NCBI GenBank assembly: GCA_964551065.1
Contig: CAZKAU010000001.1
Location: 1-28,708 of the forward strand
Origin: Candidatus Woesearchaeota archaeon
Lineage (GTDB): Archaea; Nanobdellota; Nanobdellia; Pacearchaeales; GW2011-AR1
Direction: 5' to 3'
DNA length: 28,708 bases
Part shown: positions 12,214 to 26,395 of the stretch, piece by piece
Layout: each line of letters starts with the position of its first letter
Numbering within the stretch: position 1 is the stretch's first letter
Notes under the pieces: generated by a model
What the model was told of the DNA's origin: nothing
The model's database searches: none
The model's input: only the letters and a program-made list of their open reading frames with translations
Made by a program: the position numbers and the translations under genes

Positions 12214-12507
12214 ATGGACGCATATGAACTTATTGAAAATGTAAGAAAGGAAGGAAAAATTGAAAAGGGAACTAACGAAGTTACCAAGGCTATCGAGAGA
12301 GGCACTGCTAAGCTTGTCGTTTACGCTTCAAACGTTGAACCTAAAGAAGTAATTCAGCACATTCCACTACTTTGTAAGGAGAAAGGAATTCCCTGCAAAG
12401 AAGTTGACGATAAAAAAAAGCTGGGCATTTCCGCAGGTTTGCCTGTTTCTGCTTCATCAATAGCAGTAATTGACGCAGGTAAAGTTAATCTTTCTCAACT
12501 AAAATAA
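12214..12507 (+). CDS. rpl7ae: 50S ribosomal protein L7Ae
   Basis: GKIEKGTNEVTKAIERGTAKLVVYASNVEPKEVIQHIPLLCKEKGIP...KKLG signature. Confidence 0.97.
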   Translation: MDAYELIENVRKEGKIEKGTNEVTKAIERGTAKLVVYASNVEPKEVIQHIPLLCKEKGIPCKEVDDKKKLGISAGLPVSASSIAVIDAGKVNLSQLK

Positions 12508-12555
12508 TTACAATGAGACAGATATTCCTTAGGTAATGTCTTGTTAATATTTACT

Positions 12556-12912
12556 ATGGCAAAAGCAAAAAAAGCTCAAAAACAGCAAAAAGGTCAGAAG
12601 AAAGGTAAGCAGCAGAAGTCTGCGCAACAAACTCAACAGCAACAGCAGCAGAAACAGTCTGGAACAAAAGGTAGCGAGAAGATTGTTGGAGAGGCAGTTC
12701 CTGCAATAGTTGAAGAGATTGTTGGGAGAACTGGTTTTAGAGGTGAGATTACACAGGTTAGATGCAAGGTTGAAGCAGGAAGAGATCTTGGACGTTCAAT
12801 GAGAAGAAATGTTAAAGGACCGGTAAGGCCTGGAGACAGATTGATGCTTAGAGAAACTGAAATTGAGGCTAGAAGAATCAAATCTAAAGTTACGAAGGGG
12901 GCTTATAGTTAA
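12556..12912 (+). CDS. rps28e: 30S ribosomal protein S28e with a Gln/Lys-rich N-terminal extension
   Basis: [51 protein letters not shown] at 12556 is preferred over the TTG track start. Confidence 0.95.
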
Positions 12913-13343: not shown

Positions 13344-15026
13344 TTAAAATTTTAAATTTAAGTTAATATTAAAATTTCTTTTTGTGGTTGGCTTGTTATC
13401 ATAAATCTTACTGGACTCATTGTAATTCATTTTTATTCCTGAATTCTTGCCTAATTTAAGAGAAGCTCCTATCCCATAGTCTAGGGTACTTGGGGCAAGT
13501 TCGTAAGTTGAAGAGGTATATCCTCCATTTAAACTGATTCTTTCAACTTCATTTCCGAATGAAGCGTTCAATTTTCCTCCAATTTCCCAAGGTTTCCAGA
13601 CAAATGAAGGATTGATTGTAAATTGATTTCCTTTGAGTTGGATTCCTGCTTCTGCAGATGAAGGAACCATTTCATAATTCCATTTTATCAAATCTTTTGG
13701 AACGAGGGTAATTTCTCCGATTGCGTAAGGGGTCATCTCAAAATTATCAATCTTTGTTGTATAACTTACTCCCAGGCTTGAGCTTAAATCAGAATACCAA
13801 ACAGCGTAGAGAGATGTTCCTGTTGAAGGATCTTCTTCAATTCCAGAACTGTTTATTGAGGCATTAACTCCAAGATTAAGACCTTCCTGATTAGTTGTGG
13901 TTATGCCCAGATTCCCTTCCCATCCTAAAAGATATCTTGCAGAGGTAGAGCTTGTTTGAGGGAGATTAAGAAGTCCCTCTTGACTTGTTCCCACTGAACC
14001 TAAATACCCATTAAGACTCTCATGAATTTTGACAATCTTCCCCAAATTCCAGGTCTTTTGGTTTCCAAATTGTCCGATAATTGCGGACTGCCCGTATTCA
14101 GGAAAACCCACAACACCCCCCTTTAACATAACTCCGAGATAGGGTTCTCTTAAAGTCATAGAAGTTTCATTTCCTAAGTTAAGGTTAACTGAAAAATCTT
14201 TTGAATCCTTGTTGGTGTTAAGAAGCTCTCCTGTCAAGGATTCGAGACTTTTTTTATAATTCAAAAAATTTATGAAGTTTTTTCCTTCTTCTGTTGTAAG
14301 GGTATACTTCCATTGGTTGTTTGCTCCATAAAATTCGCTTTGTAAAAGCACATATCCCAAGGTCTTTTGATACTGTCTTATTGCTTCCTCTGCATTCTTG
14401 GAATTTACTGTAAAATTTTGATAACTGTTTATTATTTCCAGACCATTTTCTGTTTTGCTTATTGTATCTGCATGAGGCACTCCGTTGCTGCTTAACAAAC
14501 CCATTGTTGCTGAAGGTTTTCCCAGGTTAGTCTGCAATTTGGTTATTGCCGATGCAAATTCTCTGCACACCCCATTTTTGCTTGCATTTGCTGAATCAGT
14601 TATATCAGTGTAAAGAGTTTTGAAAAAATCATCGCTTGAAAAAGGAGCACCATCTTTGCTTAAGGAGTAATTATAAAGGTAAAGATCATTTGCCATCCAA
14701 GACAGTACATTTCTTTGGTCGTTTGCAGATAAATCTTTTATGGAAGATACGAGCTGACTATAATCTGAAATTGTTCCTGTTTGAATTTTGTATCTTATAT
14801 CCCTAATTGGAGCCCACTCGCTACTTGATAATTTAGTTAAATCAGAATAAATAAATTTACTGTAATTTACCGGGTCTTGAGATTGGTTTTCATAGTTTAG
14901 CTCAATCTTTACTTTTGGATTTTTAGGGAAGTTTGCTTCCTGGGCTGCAACATTTCCGACTCCGAGCGAAGCGAGAGCTATTGCTGATGCTGCGAGAATT
15001 TTTGTCAATTTTGATGTCTTTTTCAT
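13344..15026 (-). CDS. Secreted protein with a transglutaminase-like/papain-like Cys domain and a beta-barrel-like C-terminal half
   Basis: Sec signal peptide, GVCREFA (Cys) and PHA (His) motifs. The C-terminal half has alternating polar/hydrophobic strands ending NFNINLNLKF. TATA box 21 nt upstream. Confidence 0.65.
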   Translation of the reverse strand: MKKTSKLTKILAASAIALASLGVGNVAAQEANFPKNPKVKIELNYENQSQDPVNYSKFIYSDLTKLSSSEWAPIRDIRYKIQTGTISDYSQLVSSIKDLSANDQRNVLSWMANDLYLYNYSLSKDGAPFSSDDFFKTLYTDITDSANASKNGVCREFASAITKLQTNLGKPSATMGLLSSNGVPHADTISKTENGLEIINSYQNFTVNSKNAEEAIRQYQKTLGYVLLQSEFYGANNQWKYTLTTEEGKNFINFLNYKKSLESLTGELLNTNKDSKDFSVNLNLGNETSMTLREPYLGVMLKGGVVGFPEYGQSAIIGQFGNQKTWNLGKIVKIHESLNGYLGSVGTSQEGLLNLPQTSSTSARYLLGWEGNLGITTTNQEGLNLGVNASINSSGIEEDPSTGTSLYAVWYSDLSSSLGVSYTTKIDNFEMTPYAIGEITLVPKDLIKWNYEMVPSSAEAGIQLKGNQFTINPSFVWKPWEIGGKLNASFGNEVERISLNGGYTSSTYELAPSTLDYGIGASLKLGKNSGIKMNYNESSKIYDNKPTTKRNFNINLNLKF

Positions 15027-15264: not shown

Positions 15265-17160
<1,896 letters not shown>

Positions 17161-17161
17161 A

Positions 17162-17440
17162 ATGGCAAAGAAATCTAAAATTCAAACACCTGACTGGATT
17201 TTGAAAGGAGAAGAGGAAGAAGTTCCAAAGAAGTCAAAGGGAAAAACTTTCAAGTTAAGGAGATGCCCTAAATGTGGAAGTGACAATTTGCAGATAGTTC
17301 TTACAGGAGAAGAGGGAAAAAGCTCAGGAGAATGGGAATGTAAGAAATGTAGATGGACCGGGAAAGATGTTAAGGAAGATGAACTCACTGAAGATGAATT
17401 TATGAAATATTTAGATGAAAAAGGGGAGGAAGTTGCATAA
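17162..17440 (+). CDS. Small zinc-ribbon protein (CPKC...CKKC) with an acidic C-terminus, inside the gyrase operon
   Basis: ATG 1 nt after the gyrB stop; its TAA overlaps the gyrA ATG (TAATG). 92 aa. Confidence 0.85.
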
Positions 17441-19974
17441 TGGCAGAAGATGAAGAAATAGAAGAAAGTATGGATGAAGAAGAACTTGAAGAGTCTGAGG
17501 ACGAAGATGATTTTGAAGAAGATTCAGATAAGAAATCTTCGGGTAAGGATAAACAAACAAGTCTTGTAGAAGAGAAAGGAATAGTTAATACTGAAATCTC
17601 TGGAGAAGTAAAGAAAGCATATCTTGATTATGCTATGTCTGTAATTGTTTCGAGGGCTATTCCTTCGATTGAAGATGGTATGAAACCTGTTCAAAGGAGA
17701 ATTTTGTATTCTATGAATCTTCTTGGATTGCAAAGCAATAAGCAAACTAAAAAGTGTGCCAGAATTGTTGGAGATGTTCTTGGTAAATACCATCCTCATG
17801 GAGATACTGCGGTTTACGAAGCTTTGGTAAGAATGGCTCAACCTTTTTCATTAAGATATCCTCTTGTTTTTGGTCAGGGTAATTTTGGAAGTATAGATGG
17901 TGATTCTGCAGCGGCTATGCGTTATACTGAAGCTAAGATGGCTGCAATTTCAAATGAGATTCTCGAGGATATTGAAAAGGAAACTGTGAAATTTGAACCA
18001 AATTTTGATAACTCTTTGAAAGAGCCGGTTCTACTTCCCGCAAAAATTCCAAATTTAATAATTAATGGTGCAACCGGAATCGCTGTTGGTATGGCGACTA
18101 ATATCCCTCCCCATAATCTTACAGAAATTGCTGATGCAATAATTGCCTATACCAAGAATGAAAATATTTCAATTGATGAACTTTGTGAAATTGTTTCCGG
18201 TCCAGACTTTCCAACAGGAGGAGTTGTTTCGGGAGATATGAATGAGATGTATAAGAGAGGTAAGGGAAGATTAATCCTTAGAGGAAAGGTTACAACTGAA
18301 GCTGCAAAGAATAAAGAGAGACTTGTGATCACCGAGATCCCCTATGTTCTCAATAAATCTACACTTGTTGAACAGATTGCAAAATTGATTCAGGATAAAA
18401 AACTCAGAGATGTTTCAGATTTAAGAGATGAATCTTCAAAAGGAAAAATCAGAATAGTTATTGAATTGAAGAAAGGAGCTAACTCCAAGTTTGTAAGTAA
18501 TGCTCTTTACAAGTATACCAGGCTTCAAGATTCTTTCAATGCAAATTTCCTTGCGCTTGTCGGAAATCAGCCAAGGGTCCTTAATTTGAAAAATATAATT
18601 GAAGAATATGTAAAATACAGAAAACAGATTATCACAAAAAGAACAGAGTATGATCTGAGAAAAGCAAAAGAGAGATTGGAAATTGTTGAAGGCTTGATGA
18701 TTGCCTTGAAGAATATTGATGAAATTATTTCTATAATAAAGAAATCCAGAGAAGAAGCAGCTGAAAATTTGATGAAAAAATTCAAATTTACAAAGAGGCA
18801 GGCAGAAGCTATTCTTGAAACAAGATTGAGACAATTGAGTGCTCTGGAACAAGATAAGCTTAAGGAAGAGCATCAGAAATTGAAAAACAGTATTGAAGAA
18901 TTTGAGAAGATTCTTTCAGATATGAAAGAGGTTTTGAAGATAATTGTTAAAGAAGTTAAAGCCATGAAAGAGAAATATGGTGGAGAGAGAAGAACACAGG
19001 TTTTGAAGAGGATTGGAGAAATTAAAGAGAAAGACCTTGTTCAGAAGAAAAATGTTATTGTAACTGTAACTGAGAAAGGATATTGCAAGAGAATTGATAC
19101 TGCAACTTACAAAGAACAGAAGAGAGGAGGCAGGGGAGTTACAGGAAGCGGTCTTGCGACAGGAGATTTCGTAAAACAGATAATTGATTGCTCTACTCAT
19201 GATTACCTCATGTTCTTTACTTCTAAGGGGAGAGTTCTTTTCCTCAAGGCGTATGAAATTCCTGAGGCTGATAGATACAGTAAGGGAAAAGCTTTGGTAA
19301 ACCTTATAGGAATAAAGGATGAGAGAATAACAAATATTATTTCAGTTACAGACTTTAATGATTATTTATTCATGGCTACAAGAAAAGGACAGGTTAAGAA
19401 AATTTCGCTTGAACATTTCTCAAAACCAAGAGCTTCGGGAATTAGAGCAATAACCTTGCCTCCCGACAATTCAGATATGTTGGTTGATGTTCAGATAATC
19501 AAACCTAAAGAAGAGGTTCTTCTTGCAACAAAGCATGGGCAGGCAATAAGATTTAACAGTGATGATGTAAGAGCGATGGGGAGAGCGAGCTATGGTGTCT
19601 CAGGAATAAAACTTGGAAAAGATGATGAAGTTGTAAGTTTAGAGATTTTGAGAACAAAGGAAGTTATGACTATAACTGAAAAAGGTTATGGGAAGAGAAG
19701 TGCGGTTAATGACTACAGGAAAACTGCAAGAAGTGGAAAGGGCGTAATTAATATGAAAGTGTCCGAAAAGACAGGGGATATTGTAAATACAGTTTCAATA
19801 AATCCTGAAGATAATATTATCATAACTACTGCAAAAGGGATGGTTATCAGGACCAACTTGAATAACATAAGAGTTATGGGAAGAGCGACACAAGGTGTAA
19901 GAATTGTAAAGCTTCAGGATGAAGATTTTGTTACGGATATTGTTAAAGTTCATGATTTGAATGGAGACGAGTAA
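17440..19974 (+). CDS. gyrA: DNA gyrase subunit A with an acidic N-terminal extension
   Basis: [29 protein letters not shown], catalytic AAAMRYTE, GyrA-box QKRGGRG and six CTD blades. GGAGG SD-like sequence upstream. Confidence 0.98.
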
Positions 19975-20652: not shown

Positions 20653-21462
20653 TTAGAATTTTAACCTGCTTTGTTTTTCAAATTTAGGAAACCTTCCGTC
20701 TTGGCTCTGATTCCAGGCAGGACAAATTTGCTTGTAGGAACACCAATCACAAAGTCTTGAAGGGTTTGTTGGAAATTCAGTAGTTGATTCAATGGCTCTT
20801 ATTAATTCCACAGTTTCTTTCTTTAACTGTTTAAGCTGTTCTTCTGTTCTCCTTGATTCCAGTCTTTTGTTAAAATTAAGATAGTGCCAAATAAGACGGA
20901 CTTCTGTAGCATTATCAAACATTTCTCTTATTGCTATTGAATAAAGTGCAAGCTGCCTATCTTCATCAACCTTGTCCTGGGGTGGAAGGGTGTTTGAGGT
21001 TTTATAATCATGAATTTCATATTCACCTGTTTCTAAGTTATAACATAGCCTATCAATGAATCCTTTTAATTTGTAATTTCCTTCTTCATCTAAATCTATG
21101 AAAATTTCTTTTTCCAGAGCCAGGGTGTTTTCCTGAAAAGGTGCATATCTATTGTAGTAATCTATTAGAAACTGAACCCCTTTATTGTAATAGTCGTTAT
21201 CAGTCATCCCTTTTTTCGGGATTAGGAAATCTTTCCTTTCAGCCAGCCAATGCCTTGAATAGAAAAGCATAACATCATCAAGCGAAGGAAGGTTCCCCTT
21301 TTTAGCTTCCTCATAAATCCATTCAAGAGTTAAATGGACCATGGTTCCAAGATGAGCTTCAATAGTTCTTTCTTTTTCTGGTATGTGATCTATGTAACGA
21401 AATTTATATCTCTTTTTGCATTGTTCAAAAGTACTTAGTCTTGAATGAGAATATATTGTCAT
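20653..21462 (-). CDS. Stand-alone RecB/AddB/Cas4-like PD-(D/E)XK nuclease with an Fe-S staple
   Basis: YSHSRLSTFEQC, G..VH..LE, GFIDRL, HDYKT, QLALY and C-terminal CDWCSYKQIC (1+3 Cys pattern). Confidence 0.9.
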   Translation of the reverse strand: MTIYSHSRLSTFEQCKKRYKFRYIDHIPEKERTIEAHLGTMVHLTLEWIYEEAKKGNLPSLDDVMLFYSRHWLAERKDFLIPKKGMTDNDYYNKGVQFLIDYYNRYAPFQENTLALEKEIFIDLDEEGNYKLKGFIDRLCYNLETGEYEIHDYKTSNTLPPQDKVDEDRQLALYSIAIREMFDNATEVRLIWHYLNFNKRLESRRTEEQLKQLKKETVELIRAIESTTEFPTNPSRLCDWCSYKQICPAWNQSQDGRFPKFEKQSRLKF

Positions 21463-25195: not shown

Positions 25196-26395
25196 TTATT
25201 CTGTAACTTGGCCCCAACCAATCAATCTCCAGTGACCATTAAAGTTTCTTGCAATTCCTACTTTGCTTCCTTTTAATCCTATAACAGGGATGTTTAGAGA
25301 TAATTCTATTTGTCCAGTTTTGCCGTCGACTTTTTCAACTATTCCGACAGTTATAGTTGTGTCAACATTTAGCATGAGCATTTCTTTTGTTTTTATTGGT
25401 TCTATCTTATTTTTTTCAGCTTCTGCATCTCCAAGAACTTCCTTGAAAAGAGTGTGAGTTATCTTAAGACTGTGTGTTATATCTGGCAAAACACCTTTTT
25501 TGGATACAAGACATCCTGTGAGAGAGTCTGCTTTTGTAAGGGCTGGATCTAATGACGTTTCTATTGCAATACTTGCTCCAGGTTGCGCAGTTTTTACGGA
25601 TTCTGTTCCCTTGTGAAGTGCAAGAATCTTCGCAGTTAGTGTTTGGTATATTCTCTGGTTTGCTTTTTTCAGGCTAAGACCTGGTTTTATTTCAATTTCA
25701 TCTCCTTCATTTAATTCTCCTTGTTTCAAGATTCCTCCAAGATCCCCTCCTTTTATTTTATCTATGGAAATTCCAGGTCGGTTTATATCAAAACTTCTTG
25801 CAACTATAAATACAGGGTCTGATTTTATGTCTCTTTCAGGAATTTGGATTTTGCATATTTCTTCAAGAAGCTTGTCAACATTTATTCCCTGTTGTGCAGA
25901 GATTGGGATTATTGGAGCATCCTCTGCAAAAGTTCCCTTGACGAATTCTTTTATTTTTTTGTAATTTTCAACAGCTCTCTCGCGAGTTACAAGATCAATT
26001 TTGTTTTGAACTATTATAAGATTTTTAATTTTCTTTGCCTGTAAAACCATAAAATGCTCTCTTGTCTGAGGCTTTATTCCTTCGTTTGCGGCAATGACCA
26101 GAATTGCAGCATCAATTGTTGCAGCTCCAGAAAGCATTGTTGCCATCAGCATTTCGTGTCCAGGAGCATCAATAAAAGAGACATATCTTTCGGGATTTCC
26201 TTTTTTCTCAAGATTATATCCTTCTTTATCCTTGTAAATTATCAGATCTGCGTACCCTAATTTTATTGTAATACCTCTCTTTAACTCTTCTGAATGTTCA
26301 TCCGTATTCTTTCCAGTGAGCCTCTTAAGTAGGGTTGTCTTTCCATGGTCTATGTGTCCGACAATTCCAATGTTCAAAGAAGGTATTTTTTCCAT
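25196..26395 (-). CDS. eif2g: Translation initiation factor 2 gamma subunit (aIF2-gamma)
   Basis: NIGIVGHIDHGKTTL, EELKRGITIKLGY, FIDAPGHE, QNKID, PISA, RSFDINRPG and WRLIGWG. Confidence 0.96.
   Translation of the reverse strand: MEKIPSLNIGIVGHIDHGKTTLLKRLTGKNTDEHSEELKRGITIKLGYADLIIYKDKEGYNLEKKGNPERYVSFIDAPGHEMLMATMLSGAATIDAAILVIAANEGIKPQTREHFMVLQAKKIKNLIIVQNKIDLVTRERAVENYKKIKEFVKGTFAEDAPIIPISAQQGINVDKLLEEICKIQIPERDIKSDPVFIVARSFDINRPGISIDKIKGGDLGGILKQGELNEGDEIEIKPGLSLKKANQRIYQTLTAKILALHKGTESVKTAQPGASIAIETSLDPALTKADSLTGCLVSKKGVLPDITHSLKITHTLFKEVLGDAEAEKNKIEPIKTKEMLMLNVDTTITVGIVEKVDGKTGQIELSLNIPVIGLKGSKVGIARNFNGHWRLIGWGQVTE

Follow-up and report, generated by a model that had tools for sequence, protein, structure and literature searches.

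DNA gyrase is usually regarded as a two-gene A2B2 machine with few known protein partners, the inhibitors and protectors of the bacterial enzyme being encoded elsewhere. In a 28,708 nucleotide (nt) stretch of DNA from a Candidatus Woesearchaeota archaeon (contig CAZKAU010000001.1, positions 1 to 28,708 of the forward strand), which in its full length is referred to here as the window, a third gene is found between gyrB and gyrA, encoding a 92-residue protein with the cysteine pattern of a zinc ribbon. What does such a protein do in the middle of a gyrase operon, in a domain of life whose gyrase was acquired from bacteria by horizontal transfer (PMC9348778)? Our analysis of the gene, its relatives and their surroundings suggests, with a probability that we put at about one half, that it encodes a lineage-specific protein co-produced with DNA gyrase and working alongside the enzyme in an accessory role. 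A gyrase role for this protein, which we refer to as the ribbon protein, appears well motivated by genomics, and we regard it as a good candidate for a new gyrase partner protein.

Linkage of the ribbon gene to gyrase

The association was followed from both sides, beginning with the ribbon protein. Scanning one genome per GTDB species gave 196 species with a relative, from which the best 80 loci were retained, and the GyrB and GyrA of the window were searched by tblastn against 85 loci, made up of these 80 species genomes and five earlier loci. On the same strand, gyrB lies upstream of the ribbon gene in 82 of the 85 and gyrA downstream in 80, and all misses are contig ends with the exception of locus L055; the ribbon gene is thus linked to gyrase in ~79/80 loci (~99%). 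In the three initial loci the order gyrB, ribbon gene, gyrA was found each time with different inserted genes, and across the wider set the gap between gyrB and the ribbon gene ranges from -4 to 1926 nt and that between the ribbon gene and gyrA from -62 to 2777 nt. Varying unrelated genes fill both gaps, the ribbon gene being the constant element, and this arrangement is kept across hundreds of DPANN species despite repeated unrelated insertions on either side. By comparison, among the loci that could be evaluated, 34 of 47 (72%) have the S28e cluster upstream of gyrB and 30 of 44 (68%) a PDDEXK_1 nuclease downstream of gyrA, and the linkage of the ribbon gene to gyrase (~99%) is tighter than that of these flanking genes (~70%). 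No homolog in another neighbourhood, which would speak against a gyrase role, was found among the 80 genome loci, three divergent members and four members of a sister family described below, with L055 supporting the gyrB side only.

At L055 (2762-10072) the ribbon gene still follows gyrB and gyrA is replaced over 7 kb, which suggests that the operon was split by rearrangement or insertion. The order there is gyrB, a nucleoside deoxyribosyltransferase (NDT)-like gene, a 212-residue unannotated open reading frame (ORF), an HD gene, the ribbon gene, a membrane protein gene and a 214-residue ORF, with NYN among the replacing genes; thereafter come a P-type ATPase-like ORF and a pair of nucleotidyltransferase-like ORFs, named by eye from their translations.

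The genes inserted into the gyrB-gyrA interval include those for HD hydrolases (13 loci), cupins (10), cytidylyltransferase-like (9), NDT-like (7) and NUDIX proteins (5), as well as HAD and tRNA_bind proteins and, in single loci, MazG and His_Phos_1; many of them are tied to nucleotide metabolism. A protein of ~113 residues with transmembrane and Cys-rich character is encoded just upstream of the ribbon gene in 15 loci.

Starting instead from gyrase, a metagenome scan with the GyrB C-terminus gave 80 loci, with GyrB identities from 93% down to 57%. We defined a DPANN-type set as those with GyrB at >=63% identity and a complete gyrB-gyrA interval (n=22), and a ribbon ORF is present in 16 of these 22 intervals, ten of the window type and six of divergent types. 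At loci with GyrB at <=58% identity the gap between gyrB and gyrA is ~20-70 nt or the two genes are unlinked, and no ribbon was found.

The relatives of the ribbon protein form a family, which we term type 1. A word-indexed protein search returned 707 homologs at E<=0.01, the best 120 of which have 87-123 residues and are 52-93% identical to the window protein; the sources named among these 120 are Pacearchaeota, Nanoarchaeota, Diapherotrites or 'archaeon' metagenome-assembled genomes (MAGs). A full HMMER scan of 1.84 billion representatives gave only 70 clusters (50% identity) at E<=0.001, and the family is therefore compact and lineage-restricted. An earlier interpretation made without database searches, which we call the sequence-only reading, had proposed an archaeal regulator or adaptor; archaeal it is, but the type-1 family is confined to one DPANN radiation (Woese-, Pace- and Nanoarchaeota MAGs) and is not a property of archaea in general. 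The ratio dN/dS of the ribbon gene is ~0.16-0.20 where dS is unsaturated, and the 92-residue ORF is a real gene under selection, far beyond chance. Median identity to the window is 58% for the ribbon protein, 74% for GyrB and 71% for GyrA, and the ribbon protein scores below the cut-off of every Pfam and NCBIfam model. The archaeal operon also occurs in records labelled 'bacterium', 'Candidatus Omnitrophota bacterium' and 'Patescibacteria group bacterium' (L030, L062, P0094), which are probably mis-binned or mislabelled contigs.

A second, more distant family, termed type 2, comprises 312 proteins from more distant DPANN lineages and has the motif YFCPKCxS ... FGxxPKMxCxxC ... FP followed by a strongly basic C-tail. 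Comparison of the two types by hhalign over the ribbon core gave a probability of 88% and an E-value of 3e-6, and in four of four loci examined the type-2 gene lies 0-2 nt after gyrB and before gyrA. Given this homology and the shared slot, the presence of a ribbon gene at the junction predates the split of these DPANN lineages. The predicted arms and tails appended to the core differ between the two types. Type-2 genes were located at L112 (10693-10965), L115 (6124-6456), L117 (1768-2034), L121 (10693-10917) and L170-L177, one lies on a Tara Oceans marine contig, and some of the proteins bear an N-terminal CxCxCGC cluster.

Distant relatives of another kind carry two to four tandem copies of a ribbon-plus-helix unit (P0147, P0183, P0188, P0174); in P0147 four copies are combined with an unrelated C-terminal domain, and in P0183 two copies with a membrane region. 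Going by these proteins, use of the ribbon module may not be limited to gyrase operons. Long matches were considered as Rosetta-stone fusions and rejected, P0166 being a repeat protein from a eukaryote in which the match is confined to 'TPDWVL' and P0147, P0183 and P0188 being multi-ribbon proteins.

The gyrB-gyrA interval also houses a second family of small proteins, of ~60-108 residues and very acidic, with the motif EIDELIxKLxELK...FEIDDE..LxINY. It occurs at 19 distinct loci, in most cases directly ahead of gyrA (for example L012 10254-10466, L114 10690-10881 and L146 4221-4532), and has no Pfam or NCBIfam match. At L146 the acidic protein is present and the ribbon absent from the interval, and in P0134 (178 residues) the ribbon protein continues at its C-terminus into the acidic protein as a fusion. 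This small acidic protein may be a further gyrase-linked factor, e.g. a DNA mimic. The acidic N-terminal extension of GyrA in the window was considered as a homolog of it and rejected, the hidden Markov model of the acidic protein having no match in the window.

Gene layout, coupling and predicted structure

The features of the operon and of the ribbon protein within it are as follows.

15268..17160, + strand: gyrB, 630 residues, first cistron of the unit (Pfam models)
17158..17164, + strand: junction of gyrB stop and ribbon start, TAG-a-ATG (read from sequence)
17162..17440, + strand: zinc-ribbon protein gene, stop included, 92 residues (ORF, homologs, synteny)
17186..17203, + strand: N-arm motif TPDWIL, residues 9-14, probably flexible (alignments; low AlphaFold2 confidence)
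17204..17263, + strand: Lys/Arg-rich linker, residues 15-34 (alignment: K-rich, of variable length)
17264..17362, + strand: zinc-ribbon core from CPKC, with C35, C38, C60 and C63 (alignment, AlphaFold2, hhalign)
17390..17422, + strand: acidic amphipathic C-terminal helix, residues 77-87 (alignments, AlphaFold2, charge count)
17425..17429, + strand: GGAGG Shine-Dalgarno (SD) sequence for gyrA, within G-E-E codons (sequence)
17438..17442, + strand: TAATG stop/start overlap with gyrA (read from sequence)
17440..19974, + strand: gyrA, 844 residues, with an acidic N-terminal extension of ~45 residues (Pfam)

The identity of the flanking genes is clear, GyrB matching the Pfam models HATPase_c, DNA_gyraseB, Toprim and DNA_gyraseB_C (E 1.8e-64 to 1.6e-16) and GyrA matching DNA_topoisoIV (E 1.2e-159) and six DNA_gyraseA_C blades. 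The enzyme can be called a gyrase because its GyrA contains AAMRYTE and the GyrA-box-like QKRGGRG.

The gyrB stop codon TAG (17158-17160) is followed one base later by the ATG of the ribbon gene at 17162, and the ribbon stop codon TAA (17438-17440) shares its last A with the gyrA ATG (17440-17442). The sequence-only reading had described both junctions correctly, together with the gyrA SD motif supplied by the ribbon gene, which lies within the KGEEV codons, 10 nt 5' of the ATG of gyrA; it had given the gene as 17162-17442, of which the start holds, but the ORF stops at 17440 and the two bases beyond belong to gyrA. Its reading of the cysteine motif as CPKC-x21-WECKKCRW was right in recognizing a four-Cys ribbon and wrong in the spacing, 19 residues separating CPKC from WEC, and the acidic C-terminal end stands in the protein sequence as it was quoted. 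A longer version of the ORF, of 102 residues from an in-frame ATG at 17132, was rejected, as homologs begin with MAKKSK or MGK at the equivalent of 17162.

The proposal of translational coupling is supported on both sides of the ribbon gene, and from its sequence gyrB-ribbon-gyrA appears to be a unit with translation coupled at both junctions. The ribbon gene's own SD-like motif (AAGGAGG, 17137-17143) is 18 nt 5' of its ATG, and termination-reinitiation after gyrB is therefore the more likely route for translation of the ribbon protein. Across loci, the stop codon of the preceding ORF falls within -1..+2 nt of the ribbon ATG in 47 of 75, the next ATG is placed -4..+4 nt from the ribbon stop in 58 of 77, irrespective of the product of the cistron that it opens, and 74 of 79 ribbon genes have an SD-like GGAG or GAGG among their final 22 nt. 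In the last six codons of these 79 genes, Glu is encoded by GAG in 66% of cases (20% elsewhere) and Gly by GGG in 41% (11% elsewhere). The SD motif and this codon bias imply that the terminal KGEEV owes some of its conservation to the need for a ribosome-binding site. In the FMKYLD helix that precedes KGEEV, it is the protein sequence that is conserved. A scan for promoters and terminators of bacterial type inside the unit, of little relevance for an archaeon, found nothing above shuffled expectation.

Alignments of 33 and of 147 sequences were made, and an AlphaFold2 model was built with the latter. The protein is predicted to be a four-Cys zinc ribbon with two CxxC knuckles on beta-hairpins. 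Its core has the pattern C-x2-C-x21-C-x2-C, all four cysteines (C35, C38, C60, C63) being invariant in the 147 sequences, and with F30, P36, W58 and G67 invariant and W65 at least 90% conserved in the alignments; the modelled strands 29-34, 43-46, 57-60 and 71-76 surround the Cys pairs. The helix at 77-87 is modelled confidently together with the ribbon, both at a predicted local distance difference test score (pLDDT) of 76-88, and the C-terminal segment E-x-E-F-M-K-Y-L-D-x-x-G is conserved, with F80 invariant and M81, K82, Y83, L84 and D85 at least 90% conserved. The N-arm (residues 1-28) reaches a pLDDT of ~57-62; T9, P10 and W12 of its TPDWIL motif do not vary among the 33 aligned sequences, and each keeps a conservation of at least 90% when 147 are aligned. 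Charge is bipolar, with a net +6 over residues 1-34 and -7 over residues 68-92. The motif is missing from short members that keep the operon position: divergent members of 67-83 residues also lie in the gyrB-gyrA interval (P0149, 71 residues; P0160, 67 residues; P0196), and P0149 and P0160 are without the N-arm yet inside the gyrase interval.

The N-terminus of GyrA in the window (17440-17580) is a strongly acidic, low-complexity extension of ~45 residues, which is largely unconserved, most tblastn matches in other genomes beginning at about residue 37-51. Inteins are frequent in DPANN gyrase genes, many gyrB and gyrA spanning ~3.2-4.9 kb as against 1.9-2.5 kb (L013, L014, L017, L022, L023, L026, L030, L061, L087 and others), and precomputed Pfam annotation places Intein_splicing inside GyrA in such genomes; gyrB and gyrA of the window are without an intein. 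In the regional synteny, L7Ae (12214-12507) and S28e (12541-12912) lie 5' of gyrase in the window, and a PD-(D/E)XK/Cas4-like nuclease (20653-21462, - strand) and eIF2-gamma (25196-26395, - strand) lie 3'. A peculiarity of the window is a gene for a 560-residue protein (13344-15026, - strand) inserted between S28e and gyrB, which has no Pfam match and whose N-terminus, judged by eye, is hydrophobic and signal-peptide-like.

A proposed accessory role weighed against its alternatives

If the ribbon protein acts with gyrase, its folded part, comprising the ribbon and the amphipathic acidic C-terminal helix, would dock on the gyrase holoenzyme, and the flexible Lys-rich N-arm with TPDWIL would contact DNA or a second archaeal partner. 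In this role it would be a roughly stoichiometric accessory protein or adaptor that adjusts how a bacterial-type gyrase binds DNA or is targeted in the archaeal cell, rather than an occasional inhibitor. A bolder proposal would make gyrase a three-component enzyme in Woese-, Pace- and Nanoarchaeota, with the ribbon (type 1 or 2) as a third subunit or adaptor near the GyrB-GyrA junction, needed for normal supercoiling or for coupling the bacterial-type gyrase to archaeal DNA transactions; this we consider doubtful, and within it the small acidic interval protein may be a further partner. The idea, raised in the sequence-only reading, that the protein tames a horizontally acquired gyrase is speculation.

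Several findings weigh against an accessory role. The proposed survey of gyrB-gyrA intervals for co-occurrence confirmed a persistent linkage, but six of the 22 DPANN-type intervals are without a ribbon (L104, L107, L109, L110, L119, L146), and at L104 gyrB abuts gyrA even though the GyrA N-terminus is nearly identical to that of the window. The ribbon is thus common but not universal with the gyrase of this clade and, because of these six intervals, not an obligatory subunit everywhere; that some related gyrase operons do without it is also why we describe it as accessory rather than indispensable. The interval gathers unrelated housekeeping genes (HD, NUDIX, cupin, cytidylyltransferase, NDT), so that a position within it is no proof of a gyrase function. 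Since the whole region, from L7Ae-S28e-L24e through gyrase to PDDEXK and eIF2-gamma, is ~70% syntenic in the clade, inherited gene order explains part of the linkage signal, and the conservation of KGEEV acts partly at the level of the RNA, as an SD sequence, and not of the protein. None of the 70 representative matches is a natural fusion with GyrA or GyrB, Foldseek searches of the PDB with two models (pLDDT 61.7 and 72.5) gave a best E-value of 0.2 and generic ribbons only, and the locus was found in no RNA run, only salt-marsh and marine-sediment DNA metagenomes containing it.

Much of this could be accommodated if the ribbon protein had no gyrase-specific role at all and were a general nucleic-acid-binding ribbon, concerned with chromatin, RNA or translation, whose gene has been stuck in a slowly rearranging, head-to-tail region since the ancestor of the DPANN radiation. 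The flanking synteny (72% upstream, 68% downstream), the many plainly unrelated genes that share the interval and the gyrase operons that manage without the ribbon gene all fit such a history, as do the weak resemblances, in sequence and in fold, to ribbons of the ribosomal, RNA polymerase and Elf1 types and the existence of multi-ribbon relatives (P0147, P0183). The ribbon gene is however clearly more closely linked to gyrase than are the syntenic genes around it, this linkage has persisted through insertions on either side and is shared by the diverged type-2 family of lineages further away, and no member was seen outside a gyrase operon among the loci examined, so that we think inherited order an unlikely explanation for the whole of the pattern. 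A regulatory function is rather less probable still. In that case the ribbon and its basic flank would bind the DNA or mRNA of the gyrase operon and serve supercoiling homeostasis, for which one may point to the basic arm adjoining the zinc ribbon, to the strongly basic C-tail that the sister family has instead, to the co-location of the gene with its presumed target at the examined loci and to the precedent of Brz, a small archaeal zinc-finger protein regulating an adjacent gene (PMC2253796). A position in mid-operon with tight coupling would however give amounts like those of enzyme subunits, an uncommon level for a transcription factor, the protein has no helix-turn-helix or other sequence-specific DNA-reading module, and its conserved TPDWIL arm and acidic helix resemble protein-binding elements.

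The ribbon protein might also act as a safeguard or inhibitor, with its ribbon on the TOPRIM domain of GyrB and its C-terminal segment directed towards GyrA, forming a reversible block to DNA binding. The model, by analogy only, is YacG, a chromosomally encoded 65-residue zinc-finger protein dedicated to gyrase, the zinc finger of which contacts GyrB via an inserted Trp and the C-terminal region of which spans GyrB and GyrA, and which is expressed separately and stress-induced (PMC10886550). The ribbon protein has an invariant W58 and a W65 at least 90% conserved at the ribbon, and a conserved C-terminal segment. It has however no sequence or fold relation to YacG and a different Cys spacing, and a constitutive inhibitor present at ~1:1 would cripple a strongly selected enzyme; of the alternatives considered, we give this one the least credence. 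Co-translation, probably at ~1:1, set against the separate and stress-induced expression of YacG, means that an accessory or adaptor role fits better than inhibition of the YacG type.

Should the accessory role be correct, the ribbon protein would represent a new class of gyrase accessory factor, and two families without a Pfam or NCBIfam model, from as yet uncultured organisms, would gain a function. As a protein whose gene has been retained in the operon in about a thousand DPANN lineages, it offers a concrete, cloneable test object for the question of how a bacterial gyrase was fitted into archaeal cells.

Comparison with known systems

The ribbon gene is unmentioned in the survey of archaeal gyrases (PMC9348778), in the 2024 review of archaeal DNA topology (PMC11894792) and in the 2024 review of protein inhibitors of gyrase (PMC10886550), and further full-text literature searches returned nothing on it. 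The best matches to known proteins are generic ribbons (eL43/L37ae, Elf1, RPB9/TFS, the IS1595 transposase ribbon and VdcD/ShdD), all of them sub-threshold, and the matches of the PDB profile search are likewise generic ribbons. They share with the ribbon protein the two CxxC knuckles on beta-hairpins; unique to the ribbon family are its TPDWIL arm, its acidic helix and its setting among gyrase genes. Membership of the individual families was rejected: the IS1595 ribbon scored 21.9 against a cut-off of 25.4 bits, and the 92-residue protein has no transposase domain; Elf1 scored 16.3 against a gathering threshold of 29.8 bits; for ribosomal eL43 (L37ae) there was no PF01780 match at E<=1, and NCBIfam PRK03976 reached 11.7 of 87 bits; and the TFS/RPB9, Lar, HVO_2753 and FmdB families were far below their cut-offs.

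Type II topoisomerases that work with an additional small polypeptide are known, gp60 of phage T4 and the plant Topo VI partners RHL1 and BIN4 being examples. The first is a split-off piece of a GyrB-like subunit, and RHL1 and BIN4 are eukaryotic and not zinc ribbons; we cite all three as precedents by kind and claim no homology of the ribbon protein to them. Nor is homology claimed to Brz of haloarchaea, which is reported to be a small zinc-finger protein regulating an adjacent gene in the same orientation (PMC2253796); it is a transcriptional regulator upstream of its target, whereas the ribbon gene is a translationally coupled middle cistron.

The nearest known protein by function is YacG, the one zinc-finger protein so far established as a partner of gyrase, yet every testable feature of membership failed. 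There was no PF03884 match among the 16 Pfam families at E<=1, no YacG chain among the PDB profile matches at E<=10 and no YacG entry among 50 listed Foldseek matches (two moderate-confidence models), and the sequence-only reading had rightly set the protein apart from YacG, which it matches in neither profile, Cys spacing nor fold. The cysteines of YacG are spaced C-x2-C-x15-C-x3-C, those of the ribbon protein C35-x2-C38-x21-C60-x2-C63. YacG is proteobacterial and encoded outside the gyrase operon, whereas the ribbon protein is from DPANN archaea and encoded as the middle cistron between gyrB and gyrA. What the two have in common is their small size (65 vs 92 residues), zinc binding, a conserved Trp and a C-terminal segment that is conserved or functional.

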